Shown here piece by piece: positions 16,425 through 43,854 of a DNA stretch of 64,000 nucleotides. The notes below the pieces were generated by a model, which made no database searches, was not told where the DNA came from, and saw nothing but the letters and a program-made list of their open reading frames with translations. Numbering within the stretch: position 1 is the first letter of the stretch; every line of letters starts with the position of its first letter. A program made the position numbers and the translations under genes. Source of the stretch: Terriglobales bacterium (GTDB taxonomy: Bacteria; Acidobacteriota; Terriglobia; Terriglobales; Acidobacteriaceae); assembly GCA_035457425.1 (NCBI GenBank), contig DATIBR010000030.1, positions 15,991-79,990 of the forward strand, read 5' to 3'.

Positions 16425-16500
16425 TGGCGCGCCCAAGAGGAGTCGAACCTCTAACCTTTCGGTTCGTAGCCGAATGCTCTATCCATTGAGCTATGGGCGC
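16425..16500 (-). tRNA. tRNA-Arg (anticodon ACG)
   Basis: Manual cloverleaf: GCGCCCA acceptor, GCTC/GAGC D stem, TTCGG-CTACGAA-CCGAA anticodon arm, AGAGG-TTCGACT-CCTCT T arm, encoded CCA. 76 nt. Confidence 0.9.
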
Positions 16501-16809: not shown

Positions 16810-17037
16810 TCAGACGAGCTGCACTTTTTCCCGTAGATCGAGGCCGGCTCCCCGCAGCAGCGACGCGACCGCGGCGTCGTTGAGGCGAGTGGCGTCGTAT
16901 TCCACGGTGACCGTGCGAGCCTGCTCGTTGAAGCCGAGGCGGCGGATGCCGTAGACCTCGCGCACCGAGTTGATTGCGCGGAGCTCGCGCTCCCCGGGCG
17001 CGGTCCCGTAGCGGAAGCAGACGTCTAAAGCAGTCAT
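16810..17037 (-). CDS. Small HMA-fold-like protein lacking the CxxC metal site (75 aa)
   Basis: GIRRLGFNEQARTVTVEYDATRLNDAAVASLLRGAGLDL matches the C-terminal two-thirds of a heavy-metal-associated domain. The position of GMTCxxC reads YGTAPGER. Divergent from csoR-copA. Confidence 0.55.
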   Translation of the reverse strand: MTALDVCFRYGTAPGERELRAINSVREVYGIRRLGFNEQARTVTVEYDATRLNDAAVASLLRGAGLDLREKVQLV

Positions 17038-17162: not shown

Positions 17163-17465
17163 ATGAAGACGAGAAGGAAGGCGGCCGGGGTCGACCCGGC
17201 TATCAAGACGGCGAACTTGAAGCGGCTGCGCCGGATCGAAGGCCAGGTGCGCGGCCTCCAGAAGATGGTGGAGGAAGACCGCTACTGCGCCGACATCCTG
17301 GTGCAGCTCTCGAGCGTGCAGGAGGCCTTGCGCGCGGTGGGGCGCGAACTGATGCGCAACCACCTGCGGCACTGCGCCCACCAGGCGCTGGCGCGGGGCG
17401 ACTCGGCGCAGGCGAACGCGATGCACGATGAGCTGCTCGACCTCATGTACAAGCACATCCGGTAA
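17163..17465 (+). CDS. csoR: Copper-sensing transcriptional repressor, CsoR/RcnR (DUF156) family
   Basis: LKRLRRIEGQVRGLQKM, with C-H-C ligand pattern (RYCADIL, HLRHC). Confidence 0.9.
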   Translation: MKTRRKAAGVDPAIKTANLKRLRRIEGQVRGLQKMVEEDRYCADILVQLSSVQEALRAVGRELMRNHLRHCAHQALARGDSAQANAMHDELLDLMYKHIR

Positions 17466-17474
17466 AGGGGACAG

Positions 17475-19976
17475 ATGACCAGCAAGCCTGTGATCGATCC
17501 GGTCTGCGGGATGAGCGTGATCCCCGAGCTCTCGCGCGGCTCGGTGGACTACCAGGGAACGACCTATCACTTCTGCAGCCCGCACTGCGTGAAGAAGTTC
17601 CAGGAGAACCCGGCGAAATATCTGAAGCCGCTGGGCGTGCCGCTGGTGACGCTCGGGGGGATGGCGCCGGCTACGAAGACGACGGAAGGCCACGGGGGAT
17701 GCTGCCCGCCACCGGTGGCAGCGCCCGCGCCCGCGACGCCGGCCGGGGCGAAGTACGTGTGCCCGATGGACCCGGAGGTCGAAAGCGACCGGCCGGGCGC
17801 GTGTCCTAAGTGCGGCATGGCGCTGGAACCGGCCATGCCCGTGATTGCCTCCACGAAGACCGAGTACACGTGCCCAATGCATCCGGAGATCGTGCGCGAC
17901 GCGCCCGGCACCTGCCCGATCTGCGGCATGGCGCTGGAGCCACGCACCGTCACTGCGGCGGTCGAAGAAGACCCCGAGCTCCGCAGCATGACCCGGCGGT
18001 TCTGGGTGTCGCTCGCTTTTGTCGCCCCGCTGCTCGCCATCATGGTCGCCGACGTTGTTCGCGGCATGTGGCTCCCACACCTGCTCGGCGTCCGGACGCT
18101 GGCCTGGGTCCAACTGGTTCTGGCGACGGTGCCCGTCCTCTGGGGTGGCTGGCCCTTCTTCGAGCGCGCGGCGGCCTCGCTGCGAACGCGCCACTTCAAC
18201 ATGTTCACGCTGATCGGGCTCGGCGTGGCGGTCGCTTTCGGTTACAGCGTGGTCGCGACACTCGCCCCCGGCATCTTTCCGCCGGCGCTGCGCGGCGAGA
18301 TGGGGCAGCCCGCGGTCTACTTCGAGGTCGCGGCGACGATCGTGGTCCTGGTCCTGCTGGGCCAGGTCCTGGAACTGCGCGCCCGTTCGCAGACGGGCAC
18401 GGCCATCCGGGCGCTGCTCGACCTCGCACCGAAGATGGCGACCCGCTTGCGCGCGGACGGCGGCGAGGAATCCATCCCGCTCGAGCACGTGCAGGTGGGA
18501 GACAAGCTGCGCGTGAAGCCGGGCGAGAAGATCCCGGTAGACGGCGCCGTCGTGGAAGGAGCGAGCGCCGTGGACGAATCGATGGTGACCGGTGAGCCGA
18601 TGCCGGTGGAGAAGGCCGCGGGCGCGCGCGTCATCGGAGCGACGGTGAACGGCACCGGCTCGCTCGTCATGCGCGCCGAGCGCGTCGGGTCCGAGACCCT
18701 GCTGGCGCAGATCGTGAAGATGGTGGCAGAGGCGCAGCGCAGCCGCGCGCCCATCCAGCGGCTGGCGGACAAGGTCTCCGGCTACTTCGTGCCGGCGGTC
18801 GTCGTGGCCGCGGCGCTCGCGTTCGTCGGATGGCTGGTGTGGGGCCCGGAGCCGCGGCTGGCACATGCCATCGTGAGCGCGGTGGCGGTGCTCATCATCG
18901 CGTGCCCGTGCGCGCTGGGCTTGGCAACGCCGATGGCCATCATGGTCGGCACGGGCCGCGGCGCGCGCGCCGGCGTGCTGATCCGCAACGCCGAGGCGCT
19001 GGAGACGATGGAGAAGGTGGACACGCTGGTCGTGGACAAGACCGGTACGTTGACGGAAGGGAAGCCGCGGCTGACCGAGGTGGTGGCCGCGGGCGTCAGC
19101 GAAGCCGATCTGCTGCGGCTGGCGGGGAGCGTGGAGCGGGTGAGCGAGCATCCGCTGGCGGCGGCGATCGCGCGCGGCGCCGAAGAGCGCGGCGCGAAGC
19201 TGTCGGCACCGGGGGATTTCCGTTCTTATACCGGCAAGGGCGTCAGTGGGCGGCTCGACGGCCGCGAGATCGCAGTCGGCAACCGAGCACTGATGGATGA
19301 CCTGCGCGTGGAGGTCGGTGCCGTCGAGCAGCGCGCCGAGGAGTTGCGCCGCCAGGGCGCCACCGTGATGTTTGCGGCGGTCGAGGGTCGCTTCGCGGGA
19401 TTGCTTGCGGTGGCGGACCCGGTGAAGGAGTCCACGCCCGAAGCGTTGCGCATGCTGCGCGACCACGACGTGAAGGTCGTGATGCTCACCGGCGACAGCA
19501 AGACAACAGCGGCCGCCATCGCGAACAAGCTTGGCATCGAGGAGTTCCACGCCGAGGTCCTGCCGCAGCAGAAGCTGGAGATCGTGAAGCAGCTGCAGGC
19601 GCACGGGCAGCGGGTGGCGATGGCGGGTGACGGGATCAACGACGCACCGGCGCTCGCTCAGGCCGACGTGGGGATCGCGATGGGCACCGGCACCGATGTC
19701 GCGATGGAGTCGGGCGGCGTGACGCTGGTAAAGGGAGACCTGCGGGGGATCGCGCGGGCGCGCGCGCTCAGCCGCGCGACCATGCGCAACATCCGGCAGA
19801 ACCTCTTCTTCGCCTTCGTCTACAACGCGCTCGGCGTGCCGTTGGCGGCGGGCGTGCTGTATCCGCTGTTCGGGACCGCGGCGCTGCTCAATCCGATGAT
19901 CGCGGCGGCGGCGATGAGCTTCAGCTCGGTCAGCGTCATCGGGAATTCGCTGCGCTTGCGGCGGGCGCGGCTTTAG
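17475..19976 (+). CDS. copA: Copper-translocating P1B-type ATPase with TRASH/YHS plus two CPxC-type N-terminal metal-binding modules
   Basis: Motifs CPC ([13 protein letters not shown]), [21 protein letters not shown]-terminus has CGMSV...[17 protein letters not shown]...CPKCGMAL and YTCPMHPEI...CPICGMAL. Confidence 0.95.
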
Positions 19977-20469
19977 TCCCCGCGACGCTCAGCAGGTAGT
20001 TCGTCATGTCGGGGCTGGTCCAGTTGATGGGCCCGACCAGCTTGCGCTGCACCACGCCCTGGCGGTCGATGATGAAGGTCTCGGGGTAGCCGGTGGTGCC
20101 GTAGAGCTTGGCGCCGACCTGTTCCGGGTCGCGGACGGTGAGCAGCTCCTTGGCGTTGTAGTCGTTCAGAAACTTCTTGTAGATGGCTTCGTCGACGTCG
20201 ACCGAGACGGCGAAGACCACGATGTCGCTGGCGCGCAGGTTCTGCTGCATGCGAACGAGCGACGGCATCTCTTCGACGCAGGGCGGGCACCACGTCGCCC
20301 AGAAGTTCAGGACGACGACCTTGCCCTTCAGGTCGCTGAGCGCGACGCGCCGGTCGGAGTCCTGCACGGTGAAGTCGGGTGCGGGTTTGGCGACAAAGCG
20401 CGGCTGCGCGCCGCGGTCGCAGGCGGTCAGCACGGCAAAGAGGGCAAGCGAGCAGGCCAGGCGTTTCAC
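19936..20469 (-). CDS. TlpA/ResA-like periplasmic thiol:disulfide oxidoreductase (thioredoxin fold)
   Basis: [19 protein letters not shown] active site. GTG start gives lipoprotein-like [17 protein letters not shown]. The 3' end overlaps copA by 41 nt (convergent). Confidence 0.8.
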
Positions 20470-20493
20470 GCCGCTATAATAAATGTTTCCCTC

Positions 20494-21552
20494 ATGAGCG
20501 CTACAGCCAATGGCGGGACGGGCCCGCAGTCGCGGCCGGAGGTGTCGGTGATCGTGCCCGCGCGCAATGAAGAGGCGTGCTTGGGCGCGTGCCTGGAGTC
20601 GCTGGTCGGGCAGACGGGCGTGACCAAAGAGCTCATCGTGGTCGACGACGGTTCGACCGACCGCACGCGGGAGATCGCACGGAACTTCGCGGGCGTGTGC
20701 GTGATGGACGCCGGCGAGCGCAAGGACGGCTGGGGCGGGAAGTCGAACGCGGTGTGGAGCGGCGCGCAGCAGGCCGGGGGTCGCTGGCTCCTGTTCACCG
20801 ATGCCGACACGGTACACGCTCCGGGCTCGCTGGCCAGCGCGCTCCGGGAGGCGGAGGAGCACCGGGCCGCGCTGCTCTCCTACTCGCCCGCGCAAGACGT
20901 GCACGGATTCTGGGAGCGGGCCGTGATGCCGGTGGTGTTTGCGGAATTGGCGAACACATACCGTCCGGCGGACGTTTGCGATCCGGCCAGCGCGTGCGCG
21001 GCCGCTAATGGGCAGTACCTGCTGATCGAGCGCGCGGCGTACTTCGCCATCGGCGGGCATGCGGCGGTCGCGAAGAGCCTGCTGGAGGACGTCGAGCTGG
21101 CGCGGCTGGTGAAGCAGGGCGGCCGGCGCATCCGCTTCCGCATGGCGGCCGAGGCGGTGCGCACGCGGATGTACCGCAGCTTCGCGCAGCTGTGCGAGGG
21201 CTGGACGAAGAACCTGGCGCTGCTCTTTCCGTCCACCGTCATGCTTGCGCTGCTCCGCCTGGCGGAGTTCCTGTTAATCGTTGCGACAGCGGCGGTCGCC
21301 GCGTTCGAGCTGGTTCGCGGACACGTGGCCGCGGCTGCGTTGCTGGCAGTGGTCGCGGCGCTGTTCTATTCGCTGTTCCTGGCGCGCATCCGCAAGGCGC
21401 ACTTCGGTGCGCTGTCTGACCTGTTCGCGTTGTTCGGGCTGCCCATCTTTGTGACACTTTTGCTGCGCTCGCACATCCATTACAAGGTGCGCAGGAGTGT
21501 GACCTGGAAGGGCCGGGAATACGAAGTGAAGCCGGCGGTGGAGCGAAGCTGA
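20494..21552 (+). CDS. Family 2 glycosyltransferase with C-terminal multi-helix membrane domain
   Basis: VSVIVPARNEE, VVDDGSTDRT, FTDADT (DxD) motifs, then about 4 hydrophobic helices. The stop overlaps the next ATG (TGATG). Confidence 0.85.
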   Translation: MSATANGGTGPQSRPEVSVIVPARNEEACLGACLESLVGQTGVTKELIVVDDGSTDRTREIARNFAGVCVMDAGERKDGWGGKSNAVWSGAQQAGGRWLLFTDADTVHAPGSLASALREAEEHRAALLSYSPAQDVHGFWERAVMPVVFAELANTYRPADVCDPASACAAANGQYLLIERAAYFAIGGHAAVAKSLLEDVELARLVKQGGRRIRFRMAAEAVRTRMYRSFAQLCEGWTKNLALLFPSTVMLALLRLAEFLLIVATAAVAAFELVRGHVAAAALLAVVAALFYSLFLARIRKAHFGALSDLFALFGLPIFVTLLLRSHIHYKVRRSVTWKGREYEVKPAVERS

Positions 21553-21962
21553 TGGTCTATCTCACGCGCAAGGCCGAGTTCTCGGCGTCGCACTTCTACC
21601 ATTCGGATAAGCTCTCGCCGGAGGAGAACCGGCGCCTCTTCGGCAAGTGCAACAACCCGAACGGCCATGGGCACAATTACACGCTCGAGGTCACGGTGAA
21701 GGGCGACGTCGACCCCAGGTCGGGATTCGTGGTCGACCTGAAGGACCTGAAGGAGACGATGAACCGCGAGGTCATCGACGCGCTCGACCACCGGCATCTG
21801 AACAAGGAAGTCCCGGAGTTCAAGAACGCGATCCCGACCACCGAGAACCTGGCCATCGCCATCTGGCAGCGGCTGGAAGGGAAGCTGCGCGTGGCGCGTC
21901 TGCACCGCGTGCGCGTCTATGAGACCCCGGATCTGTTCGTGGATTTCTACGGAGAAGCATGA
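21552..21962 (+). CDS. 6-pyruvoyl-tetrahydropterin synthase, mammalian-type (PTPS-II, Cx5HGH), paralog 1
   Basis: FSASHFY, GKCNNPNGHGHNY (C-x5-HGH), LDHRHLN. Confidence 0.85.
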   Translation: MVYLTRKAEFSASHFYHSDKLSPEENRRLFGKCNNPNGHGHNYTLEVTVKGDVDPRSGFVVDLKDLKETMNREVIDALDHRHLNKEVPEFKNAIPTTENLAIAIWQRLEGKLRVARLHRVRVYETPDLFVDFYGEA

Positions 21963-22381
21963 AAGCGCACCTGACGCGGCGGTACTGGTTCTCGGCGTCG
22001 CACCGGCTGCACTCGGACGCGATGACCGACGACGAGAACCGGAAGACGTACGGCAAGTGCAACAACCCGTACGGCCACGGGCACAACTACGCGCTCGAGG
22101 TCACGGTGAGCGGCGCGGTGGACGCGACCACGGGGATGGTCTGCAACCTGGTGGACCTCGATGAGTTCGTCCGGCAGCAGGTGCTGGAGAGGTTCGAGCA
22201 CGTGAATCTGAACACGCTGGCGGAGTTCCGCGGCGTGGTGCCCACGACCGAGAACCTGTGCACCACGATCTATGACGTCCTGGACAAGGGATTCAAGCCG
22301 GCACGAGTGGAGAAGGTCCGGTTGGAAGAGACCATGCTCAACTCGTTCGAGTACGCCGGCGGAAGGGAAGTGAGGGTCTGA
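21959..22381 (+). CDS. 6-pyruvoyl-tetrahydropterin synthase family protein, paralog 2 (Cx5HGH)
   Basis: [27 protein letters not shown] (Asp replaced by Glu). ATGA overlap with paralog 1. Confidence 0.85.
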
Positions 22382-22983
22382 TGCCGAGAACGACGGAACC
22401 CGCAACGCTCACCAGCGCGAGCTTCGAGGAACTGACACGCGAGATGCTCGTGCGGTTGGGCGAGGATCCGAACCGCGAGGGCCTGGTACGCACGCCCGAG
22501 CGCTTCGCCAAGGCGCTGCAGTACTTGACCAAGGGGTACAACGAGGACCCGAAGACGATCCTGAACGACGCGCTCTTCACGGTGAACTACGACGAGATGG
22601 TCATCGTGAAGGACGTGGAGATGTTCTCGCTGTGCGAGCACCACGTGCTGCCGTTCTACGGCAAGGTACACGTGGCCTACGTGCCGAACGGCAAGGTGAT
22701 CGGGCTGAGCAAGATCCCGCGCCTGATCGACGTCTTCGCGCGCCGACTGCAGGTGCAGGAGCGCCTGACCACGCAGATCGCCGAGACCATCATGGACGCC
22801 ATCCAGCCGCAGGGCGTGGGCGTGGTGATCGAGGCGCGCCACCTGTGCATGATGATGCGCGGCGTGGAGAAGCAACATTCCGCCGCGCTGACGTCGTCGA
22901 TGCAGGGCCTGTTCCGCGACTGCGCGGAGACGCGCGCCGAGTTCCTCTCACTCATCCGCGGGAAGAACGGGAACGGGAGCTAG
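22381..22983 (+). CDS. folE: GTP cyclohydrolase I
   Basis: [56 protein letters not shown] overlap with the upstream gene. Confidence 0.95.
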
Positions 22984-23772
22984 ATGGCGAAGAAGAAAGC
23001 GCTGATGCCGGAGCCGACGCCCGCGAAAAAGCGCGGCACGAAATTCGTGCTCTCCGGTAAACCGGGGCTCGAGGGGCAGATCGCGCTGGTCACGGGCGGC
23101 AACAAGGGCATCGGCCTCGCCATCGCCGAGGCGCTGGCCGCCGAAGGCTGCAAGGTCGTGATCGCTGGGCGCGACCGCGCCGCGCTGCGGCATGCGACTA
23201 CCGTGCTCTCGAAGTACGGCCATGCGGTCGTGCCGGTGGAGGCGGACGTCACGCAGGAGATCTCCGTCGTAAGGATGTTCGAAGAGGTGCGCCGCAGGTT
23301 CGGACGGCTCGACATCCTCATCAACAACGCCGGGATCGCACCCGGCGCCAGCATCGCCGATACCCATCTCGATGTCTGGCGCAAGACGCTCGACACCAAC
23401 CTCACCGGAACGTTCCTCTGCACGCGTGCCGCGCTGCCGCTGATGAAGGCGGGCGGCACGATCGTCAACAACCTTTCCGTGGCCGCGGAGAACGCCTATC
23501 CCAGCCTCGCGGCCTATTGCGCTTCGAAGCACGGAGCGCTCGGCTTCACGCGCGCGCTGCGGATGGAGACCAAGCCCATGGGCATCCGGGTGATCGCGCT
23601 GCTGCCCGGCCCGACGGAGACTGACATCTGGGACCAGTTCTACCCGGACGCGCCGCGCGGGAAGATGATGGCGCCGGAGAGCGTCGCGTCGGCTTTGATC
23701 GCGGCGATACGGCTTCCTGCCAACAGCACGGTGGAAGAGGTCCGGATCGTGCCGACCGTGGACCTGACGTGA
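22984..23772 (+). CDS. Short-chain dehydrogenase/reductase (candidate sepiapterin/pteridine reductase)
   Basis: VTGGNKGIG, NNAG, YCASK (YxxxK). Starts immediately after the folE stop. Lys-rich N-terminal extension of about 30 aa. Confidence 0.85.
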   Translation: MAKKKALMPEPTPAKKRGTKFVLSGKPGLEGQIALVTGGNKGIGLAIAEALAAEGCKVVIAGRDRAALRHATTVLSKYGHAVVPVEADVTQEISVVRMFEEVRRRFGRLDILINNAGIAPGASIADTHLDVWRKTLDTNLTGTFLCTRAALPLMKAGGTIVNNLSVAAENAYPSLAAYCASKHGALGFTRALRMETKPMGIRVIALLPGPTETDIWDQFYPDAPRGKMMAPESVASALIAAIRLPANSTVEEVRIVPTVDLT

Positions 23773-24477
23773 TCACTCCCAATTCGCGTAGGTGTAGCGG
23801 CGAGCGCGCTGCGGAAAGAGCTTGATCAGTGCGACGCCCGCGAGAAACCCGCCGACGTGCGCCCAGAAGGCGATGCCGCCCGAGGTCTGGCTCGACGGCG
23901 TGATCGCGGTCGCGGCGCCGCTCAGGAACTGCACGACGAACCAGTAGCCCAACACCAGCCACGCCGGCAGCCAGAAGAAGAACACAAGAGGGAAGTACGT
24001 GAGGACGCGGGAAGAAGGGAAGAGCAGGAAATACGCGCCCATCACGCCCGCGATGGCGCCCGAGGCGCCGACGCTCGGGACGTCGGACCGCGTGTTGAAC
24101 GCGATGTGCGCCAGCGAAGCCGCGACGCCGCAGGCGAGGTAGAGGACCAGATAGCGGAAGTGTCCGAGGTGGTCCTCGATGTTGTCGCCGAAGATCCAGA
24201 GAGCCCACATGTTTGCGATGAGGTGGAGCCAGGAGGCGTGCAGGAACATCGAGGTCACGATGGGCAGCAGGTTGAGCAGGCCGGCGCCGGTCGCGTCGGC
24301 GCCGCGCGCCAGCGCGGTGACGTGCGAAGGCACGACGCCGAACTGGAAGACGAACTCGAAGCGTGGCCGCGGCGAGAGCGAGACTTCGAAAAGAAAGACG
24401 ATGATGTTGAGCGCCAGCAGGAAGTACGTGACGTAGGGAACGGTGGAGCGCGGCGCGTCGTCGCGAAGCGGGATCAT
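23773..24477 (-). CDS. Rhomboid family intramembrane serine protease
   Basis: Motifs HASWLHLIANM and GASGAIAGVMGAY (GxSG), with 6-7 helices. Internal start MIPLRDD chosen. Confidence 0.9.
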   Translation of the reverse strand: MIPLRDDAPRSTVPYVTYFLLALNIIVFLFEVSLSPRPRFEFVFQFGVVPSHVTALARGADATGAGLLNLLPIVTSMFLHASWLHLIANMWALWIFGDNIEDHLGHFRYLVLYLACGVAASLAHIAFNTRSDVPSVGASGAIAGVMGAYFLLFPSSRVLTYFPLVFFFWLPAWLVLGYWFVVQFLSGAATAITPSSQTSGGIAFWAHVGGFLAGVALIKLFPQRARRYTYANWE

Positions 24478-27739: not shown

Positions 27740-28570
27740 TTATCTCCCGGCGCTGGGTTCGTGGGACCAGCCGGGGCGGCCGAAGATGTAGCGCAGCTTG
27801 TTGGCGAGGCCGGGAGCGCGGCGGACGTCGCGCGCGATGTCGAGCCACTCGTGGAAGGCGATGCGGACGGGGTTGTAGCTATGGATGTTCTTCGTGAGGC
27901 CGAAGTGGACGCGCTCGCGCTCCGGTTCAAAGCTGCCGAAGAGCCGGTCCCAGAGGATGAGCGTGCCGCCGTGGTTGCGGTCGATGTACTGCGGGTTGGA
28001 GCCGTGATGGACGCGATGGTGCGAGGGGGTGTTGAGGACGGCCTCGAGGGGGCCGAGCGAGCGGACCATCTCGGTGTGGATCCAGAACTGGTAGAGCAGA
28101 TTGAGCGCCTGCGCGGTCATGATCATGACCGGGGTGAAGCCGGCAAGCGGCATCCAGAGCCAGAAGAGGAAGCCCATGAAGCTGCCGGTCCAGGTCTGGC
28201 GGAGCGCGGTGGAGAGGTTGTACTTCTGGGAGGAGTGATGCACGACGTGCGAGGCCCAGAAGAGGCGGCACTCGTGGCTGGTGCGGTGGAACCAGTAGTA
28301 GCTGAACTCGTCGGCGAAGAACAACAGCAGCCAGGTCCACCAGACGGTCGGCAGGGTGAACAGGCGGAACTGGTAGAGCCAGGCGTAGATGCCGAACTGA
28401 AGGCCCTTGGCGACGAGGTTGACGAGCACGTTGCCGATGCCCATGGTGAGCGAGGCGAAGGTGTCGCGGCGCTCGTAGAAGCCGGTGCGCATGCGCGCGT
28501 CGGCGATGGCTTCCAGCGCGAGCAGCAGCAGGAAGGCCGGGATCGCCAGGTGGATGAGGTTCGGGGGCAT
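27740..28570 (-). CDS. Fatty acid hydroxylase/sterol desaturase superfamily membrane protein
   Basis: His boxes HRTSH, HVVHH and HHRVHH, with 4 or more helices. Confidence 0.85.
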   Translation of the reverse strand: MPPNLIHLAIPAFLLLLALEAIADARMRTGFYERRDTFASLTMGIGNVLVNLVAKGLQFGIYAWLYQFRLFTLPTVWWTWLLLFFADEFSYYWFHRTSHECRLFWASHVVHHSSQKYNLSTALRQTWTGSFMGFLFWLWMPLAGFTPVMIMTAQALNLLYQFWIHTEMVRSLGPLEAVLNTPSHHRVHHGSNPQYIDRNHGGTLILWDRLFGSFEPERERVHFGLTKNIHSYNPVRIAFHEWLDIARDVRRAPGLANKLRYIFGRPGWSHEPSAGR

Positions 28571-28619: not shown

Positions 28620-28694
28620 GCGGGAGTAGTTCAGCGGTAGAACGCCAGCTTCCCAAGCTGGATGTCGCGGGTTCGATCCCCGTCTCCCGCTCCA
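28620..28694 (+). tRNA. tRNA-Gly (anticodon CCC)
   Basis: Manual cloverleaf: GCGGGAG acceptor, CCAGC-TTCCCAA-GCTGG anticodon arm, GCGGG-TTCGATC-CCCGT T arm, encoded CCA. 75 nt. Confidence 0.9.
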
Positions 28695-28919
28695 AGTCTT
28701 ATTCCCTGGCGTCTCTCCGGGACTGATCGTCTTTTGAGCTACAGCCAGCGCTCAAGCGCTGGGCTATGACCTACCGCGCCTCCGGCGCGCACATCCGGCA
28801 GGCCGCTTCCAGCAGCGCGAACGAGCGCGCTACGCCGGCGTTACCAGCGCCGCGGCGAGCCGAGGGCGGCCAGCCTGAATCCCTCGCATCCCCAACCAGA
28901 TACGGCCGTCACGCGGAAA

Positions 28920-41608: not shown

Positions 41609-43081
41609 TCAGGGCTTGAGGGCGGCGGTCTTGCGGCGGATGTCGGCGACGAAGGCGGGGTCTTCGAGGCCGTCGAGGTTGATCTCGACGTTGGCGAGGG
41701 CGCCGTCGATGGCGGCGCGGCCGAGCGAGGCGGCGACGGTGAGGTCGGAGGCCATCTTCGGATTGGTGATGGGCTTGAGGCGGTCGACCATGGCGAGAAG
41801 CTCGGCAGCCTGCTGGGCGACGGAGAGCGGGACGCTGGTGGCGCCCTTGAGCGCGGCGGTGATGCCGGACGAGCCGTTGGGCGAGTCCTTGGCGGCCTTG
41901 AAGGCCTGCATGACGACGTTGTAGGACTCGGCGTCGGCGTCGATGGCAGCCTTGAAGTCCTCGCGCAGCGTGGCGAGGCGGGCGATGGCCTCGCCCAGCT
42001 CCTTGTCGAATCGCAGGTAGGCCTTCTTGCCGCGCGACATCGCGGCGACCATGTGCGCGAGTCCGGCAGCCATGGCGCCGGCGGCTGCGGCGGCGCTGCC
42101 GCCACCCGGGGTCGCGGTCGGCGCGGCGAGCTGCTCGACGAAGGGCTCGACGCCGGCGCGGAGTCCGCCGACGGCCGCCTTGCCCCCCATGATGGCGGAG
42201 AGGCGATTCTCGAGGATGAGCGAGGAGTCGAAGTTCTCGACCTGGAGGAACCACTCGGCGGCGTCTTCAAGCGCCTTCTTGGGGATGAGGCCGACGATCT
42301 CGCTGGAGAGCGGCTGGACGCCGTAGCGGGCGGCTTCGCGCTTCACGTACTCGAAGACGCGCGCGATGGGCGTCTGCTCGAAGTCGGTGAGGTTCATGGA
42401 GACCTGCGCCAGGCCGCGCACGCTGAAGCCGGCGCCCTTGACGAAGCGCAGGCCGCCGGAGGAGAAGCGCACGGCCTTGGCGACCTTCTTGGCGATGTCG
42501 ACGTCGGGCGTGTTGAGGAAGACGTTGTAGGCGATGAGGAACTTGCGCGCGCCGACGACGACGGCGCCGGCGGTGGGATGCACGCGCGGTTCGCCCACGT
42601 CGGGCTTGCGCTCGGGCTTGGTGGCGATCTCGTCGCGAATGGCCTCGAACTGGCCGCGGCGGATGTTCTCGAGGCCGACGCGTTCGGGGCGTGTGGCGGC
42701 GGCTTCATAGAAGTAGACCGGGATCTGGTAGCGTTTCCAGATCTCTTCGCCGACCTTGCGGGCGATGGTGACGCAGTCGTCGAGGGTCACGCCCTCGATG
42801 GGGATGAAGGGGACGACGTCGGCGGCGCCGAGGCGCGGGTGCGCGCCCTGGTGCTTGGTGAGGTCGATGAGCTCGGCGGCCTTCCCTACCCCGCGAATGG
42901 CGGCTTCGGCGATGGCTTCGCGGTCGCCGACCAGCGTGATGACGCAGCGATTGTGGTCGGCGTCCATCTCGCGGTCGAGCAGCCAGACGCCCGGGACCTT
43001 CATGGCGTCGACGATGGCCTGGACCCTGGCGGGGTCGCGGCCTTCCGAAAAGTTAGGGACGCACTCGACGAGAGTCGACAT
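41609..43081 (-). CDS. Glutamate formimidoyltransferase fused to formiminotetrahydrofolate cyclodeaminase
   Basis: N-terminal LVECVPNFSEGRD and HNRCVITLVG. C-terminal cyclodeaminase segment PTATPGGGSAAAAAGAMAAGL. Confidence 0.9.
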   Translation of the reverse strand: MSTLVECVPNFSEGRDPARVQAIVDAMKVPGVWLLDREMDADHNRCVITLVGDREAIAEAAIRGVGKAAELIDLTKHQGAHPRLGAADVVPFIPIEGVTLDDCVTIARKVGEEIWKRYQIPVYFYEAAATRPERVGLENIRRGQFEAIRDEIATKPERKPDVGEPRVHPTAGAVVVGARKFLIAYNVFLNTPDVDIAKKVAKAVRFSSGGLRFVKGAGFSVRGLAQVSMNLTDFEQTPIARVFEYVKREAARYGVQPLSSEIVGLIPKKALEDAAEWFLQVENFDSSLILENRLSAIMGGKAAVGGLRAGVEPFVEQLAAPTATPGGGSAAAAAGAMAAGLAHMVAAMSRGKKAYLRFDKELGEAIARLATLREDFKAAIDADAESYNVVMQAFKAAKDSPNGSSGITAALKGATSVPLSVAQQAAELLAMVDRLKPITNPKMASDLTVAASLGRAAIDGALANVEINLDGLEDPAFVADIRRKTAALKP

Positions 43082-43155
43082 GGCTGGAGGAGACAAGGAT
43101 ATCAGCCCAGTACCGAGTACCGGGTGGTGAGTACCGAGTCGGTCAATCGCCAGGG

Positions 43156-43746
43156 CTACTTGAACCAGTTGTAGCCAACGGTGAACTGCAGGGTGTTCAT
43201 GCCGGGGTTGAGGTTCCCCAAACCGGCCGAGGAAATGTGCTGGTACTTGAACTCGCCCGTCCAAGCGCGCTTCTCGCGGTGGAAGAAATGGAAGCCGATG
43301 CCCACGCTGGACTGGAAGTTGACCTCGGAGGTGTTGGGGAACGGCAAGTCGTGGTTGGTGAAGAGCACGCCGGAACCGAACTGGATGTAGGGCGCGATGC
43401 GCTTGCCGCTGGTGAAGGTCCACTTTCCGTTCAACGGGGTGATGCTGGCGCCGTAGGTGGTCTCGATGGGGGTGAAGTAGAGGTTGACGGGGTGGAAGTC
43501 GAAGGCCCACTCGAGGTTGCCGCGGTACCAGCCCGAGCCGTGCTCGTTGGTCAAGATCCTGCCGGCGCGCAGGCCGACGCTGAAGATCTGGATGTCTTCC
43601 ACGCCGCCGGAGACGGTGGTGCCGCCGGTGGCGGAGACGCCGAAGTCCCAAGTCCCCTTTTTGAGCGAGTCGGAGGGCAGGCCTTGAGCGGTGGCGAAGG
43701 CGCAGACGCAGAGCAGCACGAGCAGACTGGCGATGTGGCGCATCAT
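43156..43746 (-). CDS. Outer-membrane beta-barrel protein, acyloxyacyl hydrolase/PagL-like
   Basis: Signal peptide MMRHIASLLVLLCVCAFATAQ. Alternating beta-strand pattern, C-terminal aromatic residues (YNWFK), HISSAG motif. Confidence 0.65.
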   Translation of the reverse strand: MMRHIASLLVLLCVCAFATAQGLPSDSLKKGTWDFGVSATGGTTVSGGVEDIQIFSVGLRAGRILTNEHGSGWYRGNLEWAFDFHPVNLYFTPIETTYGASITPLNGKWTFTSGKRIAPYIQFGSGVLFTNHDLPFPNTSEVNFQSSVGIGFHFFHREKRAWTGEFKYQHISSAGLGNLNPGMNTLQFTVGYNWFK

Positions 43747-43821
43747 TTTCCCCTGGGAGAAGGTCGGGAAAAAGGTAACAGGCGAGAGCGGAATCAGGCG
43801 AGAGAAAAACTGCGGCGGTAT

Positions 43822-43854
43822 CCAAAAGCGAACGGCCGGCGGGCCGCCGGCCGT
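43822..43854 (-). terminator. Intrinsic terminator downstream of yebC
   Basis: ACGGCCGGCGG-C-CCGCCGGCCGT palindrome followed by TCGCTTTTGG on the minus strand. Confidence 0.55.

Follow-up and report, generated by a model that had tools for sequence, protein, structure and literature searches.

A pterin and glycosyltransferase gene cluster retained across Terriglobia

The window analysed here, 64,000 nucleotides of a Terriglobales bacterium (assembly GCA_035457425.1, contig DATIBR010000030.1, positions 15,991 to 79,990 of the forward strand; GC content ~0.65), contains a compact run of five genes on the + strand that encode a membrane glycosyltransferase of family 2 (GT2), two paralogues of 6-pyruvoyl-tetrahydropterin synthase (PTPS-a and PTPS-b), a GTP cyclohydrolase I (FolE) and a short-chain dehydrogenase/reductase (SDR). 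The operon is retained in ~97% of the related Terriglobia loci examined, where the conserved unit consists of a redoxin gene on the - strand and, divergent from it, GT2-PTPSa-PTPSb-FolE on the + strand, with the SDR gene outside this core. We propose that the module makes a tetrahydrobiopterin (BH4)-type, 6-substituted tetrahydropterin that the GT2 would glycosylate at the cytoplasmic membrane, a full model to which we assign a probability of about 0.35. The parts of this model differ in strength. FolE and PTPS-a probably make 6-pyruvoyl-tetrahydropterin and, from it, a BH4-type pterin, while glycosylation of a pterin by the GT2 is plausible, its basis being operon linkage. Linkage also suggests that PTPS-b is a hetero-oligomeric partner of PTPS-a and that the redoxin is functionally tied to the pathway.

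The GT2 open reading frame (ORF; 20494-21552, 352 aa; Pfam PF00535, 98.9 bits) is followed by those of PTPS-a (21552-21962, 136 aa; PF01242, 133.5 bits), PTPS-b (21959-22381, 140 aa; PF01242, 107.2 bits), FolE (22381-22983, 200 aa; NCBIfam TIGR00063, 251.7 bits against a cut-off of 181.6) and the SDR (22984-23772, 262 aa; PF00106 adh_short, 193.4 bits). Successive genes overlap by 1, 4, 1 and 0 bases at the junctions cTGATGg, gcATGAaa, cTGATGc and TAGATG, respectively. Every downstream start codon is preceded by a GGAG/GAGG-like stretch 6-12 nt away, within the upstream gene, and the GC content of third codon positions (GC3) is 0.88-0.94 across all five genes. An earlier, sequence-only reading of this DNA had described the same five-gene run; its coordinates, junctions and annotations were all reproduced, and the motifs it quoted were found in the translations (GKCNNPNGHGHNY, FEHVNLN in PTPS-b and Y178-x3-K182 in the SDR). 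The stop codon of the SDR gene (TGA, 23770-23772) abuts that of a convergent rhomboid protease gene (23773-24477, - strand), leaving no space for a terminator between the two transcription units. A scan for promoters and terminators gave no sigma-70 pair, and no internal terminator on the + strand was convincing. Similarly, searching 15-30 kb against Rfam at E values up to 1 yielded only two tRNAs and Acido-Lenti-1, with neither a riboswitch nor a leader ahead of the operon.

Conservation was assessed in related and comparison loci recovered by GT2-based searches, 165 in all. They include three long contigs with close GT2 matches, 80 loci from genomes of GTDB species, for which the search used aligned GT2 representatives that are 37-61% identical to the query, and 80 metagenome loci. 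The loci were mapped by tblastn with the proteins of the window as queries, and cluster counts were taken from these matches because the gene caller, which applies a GC3>GC1>GC2 rule, misses genes in loci of 55-60% GC. Counts refer to the 149 loci in which the GT2 is at least 37.5% identical to that of the window, a usable GT2 ORF being present in 147. Nearly all of the 149 belong to the class Terriglobia of the Acidobacteriota (Terriglobales, Acidoferrales, Solibacter-type metagenome-assembled genomes (MAGs) and MAGs labelled subdivision gp1, gp2 and gp13), and the named sources of the GT2 homologues are Terriglobales, Candidatus Koribacter and Acidobacteriota.

A PTPS gene lies downstream of GT2 in 116/119 loci with at least 1.5 kb of downstream sequence, FolE follows the PTPS genes in 102/105 loci with at least 3 kb downstream, and a divergent thioredoxin-fold gene precedes GT2 in 129/132 loci with at least 700 bp upstream. 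The gap between GT2 and PTPS-a has a median of 19 bp, the two genes usually lying within 30 bp of each other or overlapping. The same order thus recurs in >100 independent loci, an arrangement far beyond chance. By contrast, the SDR gene comes directly after FolE in only 33 of the ~105 loci in which the sequence extends far enough downstream, and it is on these grounds that the redoxin, and not the SDR, is assigned to the conserved unit. The gene order read from the window therefore holds across the class for GT2-PTPS-PTPS-FolE but not for the SDR, and the redoxin partner had been missed.

Three types of flanking sequence occur in different clades. In one the cluster lies between CsoR-CopA upstream and SDR-rhomboid-TruB downstream; in another IleRS-LspA-TonB are upstream and TruB-GDSL-ABC downstream; and in the third a MacB-like ABC gene is upstream and RpsO-PNPase-MurA are downstream. 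The flanks of all three types are housekeeping genes, while the GT2-PTPS-FolE-redoxin linkage holds down to 37.5% GT2 identity.

GT2 homologues from other phyla, at ≤38% identity, had no PTPS, FolE or redoxin gene nearby in 16 loci (L090, L120, L123, L126, L128, L130, L135, L141, L142, L145, L151, L153, L157, L159, L161 and L163), and the neighbours of the few that were inspected are unrelated (MreBC, HisG, LarC and a PEP-mutase-like gene). A locus from Chloroherpetonaceae (Chlorobiota; L149, 3786-5422) encodes an HpnB/CruG-like GT2 of 413 aa, with an N-terminal helix, that overlaps a PTPS-family ORF by 4 bp. This ORF is divergent (Pfam, 53.5 bits), with HLH instead of HGH and no Cys, and is adjoined by lumazine synthase. 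The locus was considered as a cross-phylum instance of the GT2-PTPS linkage and rejected; relatives of its PTPS (60-65% identity) adjoin RsmG and a SIS-domain gene and have no GT2, and the pairing is hence treated as a lineage-specific coincidence. Clusters in a 'Chlamydiota' MAG (L013) and a 'Verrucomicrobiia' MAG (L075) probably reflect misbinning, as their genes are typically acidobacterial: the GT2 of L013 is 63% identical, and L075 has Acidoferrales-like flanks with the same upstream genes as L067. Among the loci seen, the pterin/GT2 system is thus confined to Terriglobia, where it appears to be vertically inherited.

FolE and the two PTPS paralogues

FolE is, from its sequence, a Zn-dependent GTP cyclohydrolase I of type IA. 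In addition to TIGR00063 it matches NF006825 (269.3 bits), and the motifs CEHH and HLCMMMRG are present in the translation.

The two PTPS paralogues are 49% identical to each other. Diagnostic motifs within COG0720 distinguish PTPS-II (C-x5-HGH), which belongs to the BH4 branch, from QueD (C-x3-HGH) and PTPS-III (E-x-x-HGH), and similarity to rat PTPS alone can mislead (PMC5041015), which is why the class assignment made here rests on the motif. C-x5-HGH occurs in both paralogues of the window (GKCNNPNGHGH in PTPS-a) and is kept in 77/78 PTPS-a and 79/79 PTPS-b orthologues. In an alignment of four orthologue pairs all eight sequences have Pro three positions before HGH, where PTPS-III would have Glu. 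PTPS-a aligns end to end with animal PTPS, matching the rat enzyme (1b66) with an E value of 8.8e-42 compared with 7e-10 for Escherichia coli QueD, while the best animal match of PTPS-b is human PTPS (3i2b; E value 6.1e-33, compared with 3e-4 for E. coli QueD). The NCBIfam QueD model gives 75.4 and 68.6 bits for the two paralogues, both below its cut-off of 89.25. The earlier assignment of both proteins to PTPS-II is thus borne out by the motif and by their closer similarity to the rat and human enzymes than to QueD.

Catalytic positions, in rat numbering, were tallied over 78 PTPS-a and 79 PTPS-b orthologues. In PTPS-a, His23, Cys42, His48, His50, Asp88, His89, Thr105, Glu107 and Glu133 are kept in 75-78 of the 78 proteins (Cys42, His48 and His50 in 77-78), consistent with a predicted activity as a canonical PTPS-II-type 6-pyruvoyl-tetrahydropterin synthase. 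PTPS-b keeps the Zn ligands (His23, His48 and His50), Cys42, the TTE segment and the pterin-binding Glu133 in 76-79 of its 79 orthologues; at the catalytic dyad, Asp88 is present in 64/79 and His89 in 58/79, the window copy having Glu-His. At least 12 replacement pairs (GH, DL, DQ, DR, DE, DV, DM, DY, HL, NL, GY and EH) are spread over all clades, and mean column entropy is 1.28 for PTPS-b versus 0.96 for PTPS-a. Dyad loss showed no correlation with the presence of the SDR among the 79 orthologues. These data suggest that PTPS-b is a diverged PTPS-II paralogue in which the constraint on the dyad has been relaxed rather than redirected. The Glu in place of the catalytic Asp, to which attention had been drawn previously, is indeed present in the window but is not a stable feature of PTPS-b, given that the orthologues carry DH, GH, DL, DQ, DR, HL and other pairs. 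Because the replacements are many and scattered, it is best viewed as one case of a relaxed dyad and not as the mark of a defined new specificity.

The catalytic triad of PTPS is called an 'intersubunit catalytic triad' in the title of Burgisser 1995, and the enzyme is a hexamer built as a dimer of trimers, its six Zn sites lying at subunit boundaries. On the simplest reading of its pattern, PTPS-b is most likely a subunit of a mixed PTPS-a/PTPS-b hexamer, as the provision of Asp-His by PTPS-a would explain why the dyad is the only part of PTPS-b that drifts.

Genes of related pathways were sought by tblastn with QueC, QueE, FolB and Tgt from E. coli, QueF from Bacillus subtilis and PhhB from Pseudomonas aeruginosa, and none was found in the window or the 165 loci; the positive control, E. 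coli QueD, picked up both PTPS genes. The reported absence of queC and queE from the vicinity of the operon therefore extends to the whole 64-kb window and to the 165 loci. Nor could any folate gene, such as folK or folP, be recognised in the set of recurrent neighbours that was examined.

The SDR is an accessory member of the cluster

The SDR is of the classical NADP type, with TGxxxGIG and the residues Asn139-Ser165-Tyr178-Lys182. N139, S165, Y178, K182, G38, G42, G44 and Arg63 are invariant over 33 orthologues, a set that is not specific to sepiapterin reductase (SR). The best NCBIfam models are generic SDRs, every one of which scored below its cut-off. C. tepidum sepiapterin reductase (2bd0) matched the single sequence with an E value of 2.4e-28, at about rank 57, and the family profile with 171 bits over its full length, at rank 17, generic SDRs scoring higher; mammalian SR was not among the 60 matches listed. 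This ranking does not establish the protein as a specific sepiapterin reductase. From its position it is a candidate sepiapterin/pyruvoyl-pterin reductase, accessory to the rest of the cluster. The complete three-step BH4 route that the sequence-only reading had seen in FolE, PTPS and the SDR is not sustained, as the reductase is generic and is encoded after FolE in only about a third of the clusters (33/~105).

The membrane GT2 belongs to an HpnB/CruG-like superfamily

The GT2 matches the Pfam families GT2, GT2_3 and GT21, consistent with a GT-A fold, and its DxD motif is D103-A-D105. Hydropathy peaks at residues 241-328. In an AlphaFold model built from a 35-sequence alignment (pLDDT 86.5, pTM 0.83) a GT-A domain (17-225) is followed by an interface helix (230-244), three long hydrophobic helices (248-333) and a conserved C-terminal hairpin, WKGRxY; hydropathy and model thus agree with the multi-helix membrane domain described previously. 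Foldseek matched the model to GT-A enzymes only in the PDB. Over the full length, the membrane mannosyltransferase PcManGT (6yv7; TM 0.54-0.55) matches best, with hyaluronan synthases next (TM 0.50-0.52), and no pteridine glycosyltransferase entry occurs among the PDB sequence matches.

The top-scoring named families in NCBIfam are HpnB (TIGR03469; 162.7 bits, cut-off 379.25) and CruG (NF045692; 112.4 bits, cut-off 600). The protein lacks the ~40-aa N-terminal helix of HpnB/CruG proteins, although distant GT2 representatives that do have a 40-aa N-terminal extension also score below both cut-offs. The GT2 is a member of a large, uncharacterised HpnB/CruG-like superfamily, for which 1399 representatives were found at E <1e-30, and in a neighbour-joining tree the pterin-linked proteins form the short-N-terminus part of the family. 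HpnB itself is a hopene-associated GT2 of still unknown function (PMC12583986). No hopanoid (hpn), carotenoid (crt) or polysaccharide genes were recognised among the recurrent neighbours of GT2. Known pterin glycosyltransferases are soluble, GT-1/AviGT4-like enzymes with a GT-B fold (PMC5683033), in line with an earlier remark that they are of a different type. Glycosylation of a pterin by the GT2, if real, would thus employ a different fold.

A divergent redoxin lipoprotein shares a putative promoter with the operon

The conserved upstream partner is, in the window, a TlpA/ResA-like redoxin of 177 aa (19936-20469, - strand, GTG start; identified with Pfam and NCBIfam). It has a signal peptide with an LTAC lipobox and a WCPPC active site, matches Pfam AhpC-TSA/Redoxin (2.5e-26) and scores 95 bits against TlpA and 93.5 bits against ResA in NCBIfam, both under the cut-offs. 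Its 3' end overlaps that of copA by 41 bp (19936-19976), and its GTG start codon is separated from the ATG of GT2 by 24 bp.

This redoxin-GT2 gap contains a conserved heptamer, TATAATA (20475-20481, within 20467-20496), which can be read on both strands: TATAAT, a perfect -10, lies 13 nt before the GT2 ATG on the + strand, and TATTAT lies 6 nt before the redoxin GTG on the - strand. Within a 330-nt search region, extending from 300 nt upstream to 30 nt inside the GT2 match start, an exact TATAAT is present in 123/149 loci versus 2.4% of shuffled regions. In 79/115 loci the closest CAC/CAT upstream of it, presumed to be the redoxin start codon on the minus strand, is 3-5 nt away, giving the consensus CAC-N(3-5)-TATAATA. 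The promoter scan found no -35. TATAATA is a putative promoter element, a shared back-to-back -10 for the redoxin and GT2 genes, which suggests that regulation of the redoxin and the operon is coupled. The redoxin mRNA would be leaderless, since TATTAT is only 6 nt before its GTG.

Copper genes and an AGMO-like gene near the operon

Directly upstream of the redoxin and the operon are genes for a CsoR/RicR-like repressor (100 aa), a copper P-type ATPase, CopA, of the YHS/HMBD type (833 aa) and a conserved 75-aa protein (17163-19976 on the + strand and 16810-17037 on the - strand). CopA is encoded inside the fetched locus, within 7 kb of the cluster, in 40/92 loci with at least 4 kb of upstream sequence. 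As both orientations occur (28 on the + strand and 20 on the - strand), the proximity of CopA has outlasted rearrangement. According to a study from 2025 (PMC12685090), BH4 and other pteridines bind CutA and raise its affinity for copper, and pts is induced in cyanobacteria when copper and iron are perturbed. No cutA was seen in the loci, and no CsoR operator or other regulatory element was identified.

A fatty-acid hydroxylase of 276 aa (PF04116) that resembles alkylglycerol monooxygenase (AGMO) is encoded 4 kb downstream of the operon (27740-28570, - strand). AGMO, which cleaves ether lipids, is described as a BH4-dependent enzyme; the human protein is 445 aa long. Over 176 aa the window protein is 50% identical (E 1e-61) to the core of human AGMO, whose numbering fits PMC7911779. 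The residues essential in the human enzyme are nine conserved His together with Q162, D233, N235, Y236, W243 and D244 (PMC7911779); 14/15 of the listed residues are kept and Y236 is replaced by His. At least 8000 homologues were found at E <1e-20, and the few top matches with a source name are from Terriglobales. The gene is present in none of the 165 loci, and the three contexts of its homologues contain no pterin genes, on which grounds it was rejected as a positional partner of the operon. It is plausible that the predicted enzyme is a client for the BH4 cofactor, outside the conserved unit. No paper linking Acidobacteria with BH4 genes or AGMO was found in the literature searched.

Proposed pathway and alternative explanations

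In the proposed pathway FolE would, as expected of its family, convert GTP to 7,8-dihydroneopterin triphosphate, which PTPS-a, with its diagnostic motif and fully kept catalytic residues, would convert to 6-pyruvoyl-tetrahydropterin. PTPS-b would act as the partner of PTPS-a in a mixed hexamer, in which it retains a Zn site, Cys and pterin pocket and borrows Asp-His from PTPS-a. Where the SDR is present it could conceivably produce a biopterin-type diol by reducing the keto groups of the side chain; in the other clusters this would fall to an unlinked reductase. The GT2 would then use a nucleotide sugar to glycosylate a hydroxyl of the side chain, yielding a membrane-proximal pterin glycoside, as operon linkage suggests. 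The redoxin gene and the operon share the putative 24-bp back-to-back promoter region and are probably regulated together, and the redoxin may, speculatively, connect the product with copper handling or with redox processes of the envelope. Bacteria are established producers of pterin glycosides as a class (PMC5683033).

Several observations weigh against this pathway, and in particular against its glycosylation step. Three Terriglobia loci (L061, L095 and L144) hold the redoxin and GT2 genes with no PTPS-family ORF or FolE in the locus (3.6-8 kb searched), showing that GT2 is separable from the pterin genes, and as the linkage is seen in one class only, shared ancestry adds to the linkage counts. 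Neither the GT2 model nor its Foldseek matches displayed any sign of a pterin site, the structure giving no clue to the acceptor. CruG, the only characterised relative, acts on a lipid, namely a carotenoid, and the pterin glycosyltransferases known so far are soluble with a GT-B fold whereas the window protein is a membrane GT-A enzyme. In addition, about two thirds of the clusters encode no reductase in the form of an SDR beside FolE, although a copy elsewhere in the genome is possible, and FolE may be the housekeeping copy of the cell. The pterin conjugate that the sequence-only reading attributed to the GT2 was deduced from linkage, and neither the lipid acceptor of CruG nor the three loci without PTPS favours it.

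A serious alternative, if a tentative one, is that FolE and PTPS-a/b, together with the SDR where it occurs, supply a free BH4-type cofactor to oxygenases encoded elsewhere, such as the AGMO-like enzyme or an aromatic amino-acid hydroxylase, while the GT2 and redoxin are a separate, co-transcribed or co-regulated envelope pair, comprising a lipid or polyprenyl-phosphate glycosyltransferase and a periplasmic reductase. The occurrence of the redoxin-GT2 pair without PTPS in L061, L095 and L144 is consistent with this view, as are the lipid acceptor of CruG, the membrane mannosyltransferase that is the best structural match of the GT2, the resemblance of the AGMO-like protein to the human core (50% identity and 14/15 residues) and the abundance of its family in Terriglobales. 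Such an uncoupling sits uneasily, however, with the adjacency of GT2 and PTPS in 116/119 loci despite rearrangement of the flanks, which would be unusual for unrelated functions; moreover, hopanoid, carotenoid and polysaccharide genes are not recurrent near GT2, and AGMO-like genes are not positioned near the pterin genes. A different role for the pterin itself, in copper handling, seems unlikely: a reduced pterin, glycosylated or not, would work with the TlpA-like reductase and CsoR-CopA, in Cu(II) reduction or the supply of periplasmic reducing power. The CsoR/RicR-like repressor and CopA directly upstream in the window, the presence of CopA in 40/92 loci in both orientations, the retention of the redoxin in 129/132 loci and the effect of BH4 and other pteridines on the copper affinity of CutA (PMC12685090) all point in this direction, but the link is purely positional, loci of the Acidobacteriaceae type have no CopA nearby, and neither a CsoR operator nor, in the loci, cutA was found.

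The remaining alternatives place the PTPS genes in other pathways. A role in 7-deazaguanine (queuosine/preQ0) synthesis, with one or both PTPS proteins acting as QueD, queC and queE located elsewhere and the truB and miaB neighbours a reflection of this function, is improbable. Although que loci typically cluster FolE with PTPS and similarity to rat PTPS can mislead (PMC5041015), although TruB comes directly after FolE in many Acidobacteriaceae loci, and although the QueD model is matched, at 75 and 69 bits and below its cut-off, C-x5-HGH, not C-x3-HGH, is found in 77/78 and 79/79 orthologues; animal PTPS is closer than solved QueDs by at least 30 orders of magnitude in E value; QueC, QueE, QueF and Tgt were not found in the 64-kb window or the 165 loci; and truB-rpsO-pnp is an ordinary housekeeping block. 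It is very improbable that the cluster represents housekeeping folate synthesis, in which a PTPS paralogue replaces FolB in the manner of PTPS-III. This branch also uses FolE, folB was not found in the window, and replacement of FolB by PTPS-III is documented in diverse bacteria (PMC5041015). Against it, E-x-x-HGH is absent, with Pro at that position in the eight aligned sequences, the PTPS-II Cys is present, and the recurrent neighbours examined include no recognised folK, folP or other folate genes.

Comparison with known systems and implications

The Terriglobia module resembles several known systems in part. Like the animal BH4 pathway (GCH1-PTPS-sepiapterin reductase), the window encodes a canonical FolE, a PTPS-a with all catalytic, Zn and pterin residues and an NADP-type SDR; it differs from that pathway in having two PTPS proteins, one with a relaxed dyad, and an SDR that shows no specific relation to mammalian SR among the matches listed and is mostly missing from the clusters, and the conserved unit in Terriglobia adds a membrane GT2 and a periplasmic redoxin. 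The pterin glycoside systems of cyanobacteria and Chlorobium (BGluT/PgtA and CtPGT) similarly combine BH4 synthesis through PTPS-II with the side-chain glycosylation proposed here, and the SDR aligns over its full length with 2bd0, but their transferases are soluble GT-B, GT-1/AviGT4-like enzymes, while the predicted transferase of the window is a GT-A GT2 with a transmembrane domain. With HpnB and CruG the GT2 shares a near full-length alignment and a GT-A domain with C-terminal membrane helices, yet it is far under both cut-offs, lacks the N-terminal helix of ~40 aa and has no recurrent hopanoid or carotenoid genes nearby. The resemblance to queuosine clusters lies in the COG0720 T-fold superfamily and the adjacency of folE, and the difference in C-x5-HGH, not C-x3-HGH, and in queC and queE, which were not found nearby. 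Finally, the redoxin has the thioredoxin fold, CPPC site and lipoprotein signal of TlpA/ResA/CcmG proteins and matches the TlpA and ResA models, although below both cut-offs, and its gene is located beside the GT2-pterin operon instead of cytochrome-c maturation or cox genes.

Compared with the described BH4 and pterin-glycoside pathways, the module is new in the class to which its transferase belongs, in the duplication of the synthase and in its periplasmic redox partner. Few soil bacteria are as abundant as Terriglobia, and no description of their pterin metabolism was found in the literature searched. That BH4 enzymes of the animal type are paired with a periplasmic thiol reductase and a membrane glycosyltransferase points to a pterin derivative, or a pterin-dependent process in the envelope, that has yet to be described. 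Activity of the GT2 on a pterin would mean that pterin glycosylation was invented independently, and would provide a handle on the uncharacterised HpnB-like GT2 superfamily. The duplicated PTPS with its drifting intersubunit dyad would then be a clean natural case of hetero-oligomeric subfunctionalisation among T-fold enzymes. A still broader proposal is rather doubtful. In it an HpnB/CruG-family GT2 is a new, non-homologous pterin glycosyltransferase, and the glycosylated BH4-type pterin, made at the membrane with a PTPS-a/b hetero-hexamer, serves copper homeostasis or envelope redox jointly with the co-regulated TlpA-like reductase and, in many cases, CopA. If true, it would add a pterin function and a GT2 acceptor class new to description, and it would be the first functional clue to the orphan HpnB-like clade. 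Acidobacteriota are known for ether lipids and are a proposed source of branched glycerol dialkyl glycerol tetraethers (GDGTs), and an AGMO-like gene near the operon would make BH4-dependent ether-lipid cleavage testable in this phylum.

Other features of the window and related loci

The genes downstream of the redoxin-GT2 pair in the three Terriglobia loci without PTPS differ from one another: L061 has an FtsX-type ABC permease, L095 encodes an SCO4226-like nickel-responsive protein together with a response regulator, and the gene in L144 is like that of a Zn-dependent phospholipase C. The two tRNA genes found by the Rfam scan are at 16428-16500 on the - strand and 28620-28691 on the + strand. 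The latter is closely followed by the Acido-Lenti-1 small RNA match (28744-28789, + strand; 47.8 bits, gathering score 37). A formiminotransferase-cyclodeaminase (FTCD_N/FTCD/FTCD_C; 41609-43825, - strand, 738 aa), in which the N-terminal ~250 aa have no Pfam match, is a folate-dependent enzyme encoded inside the same window.

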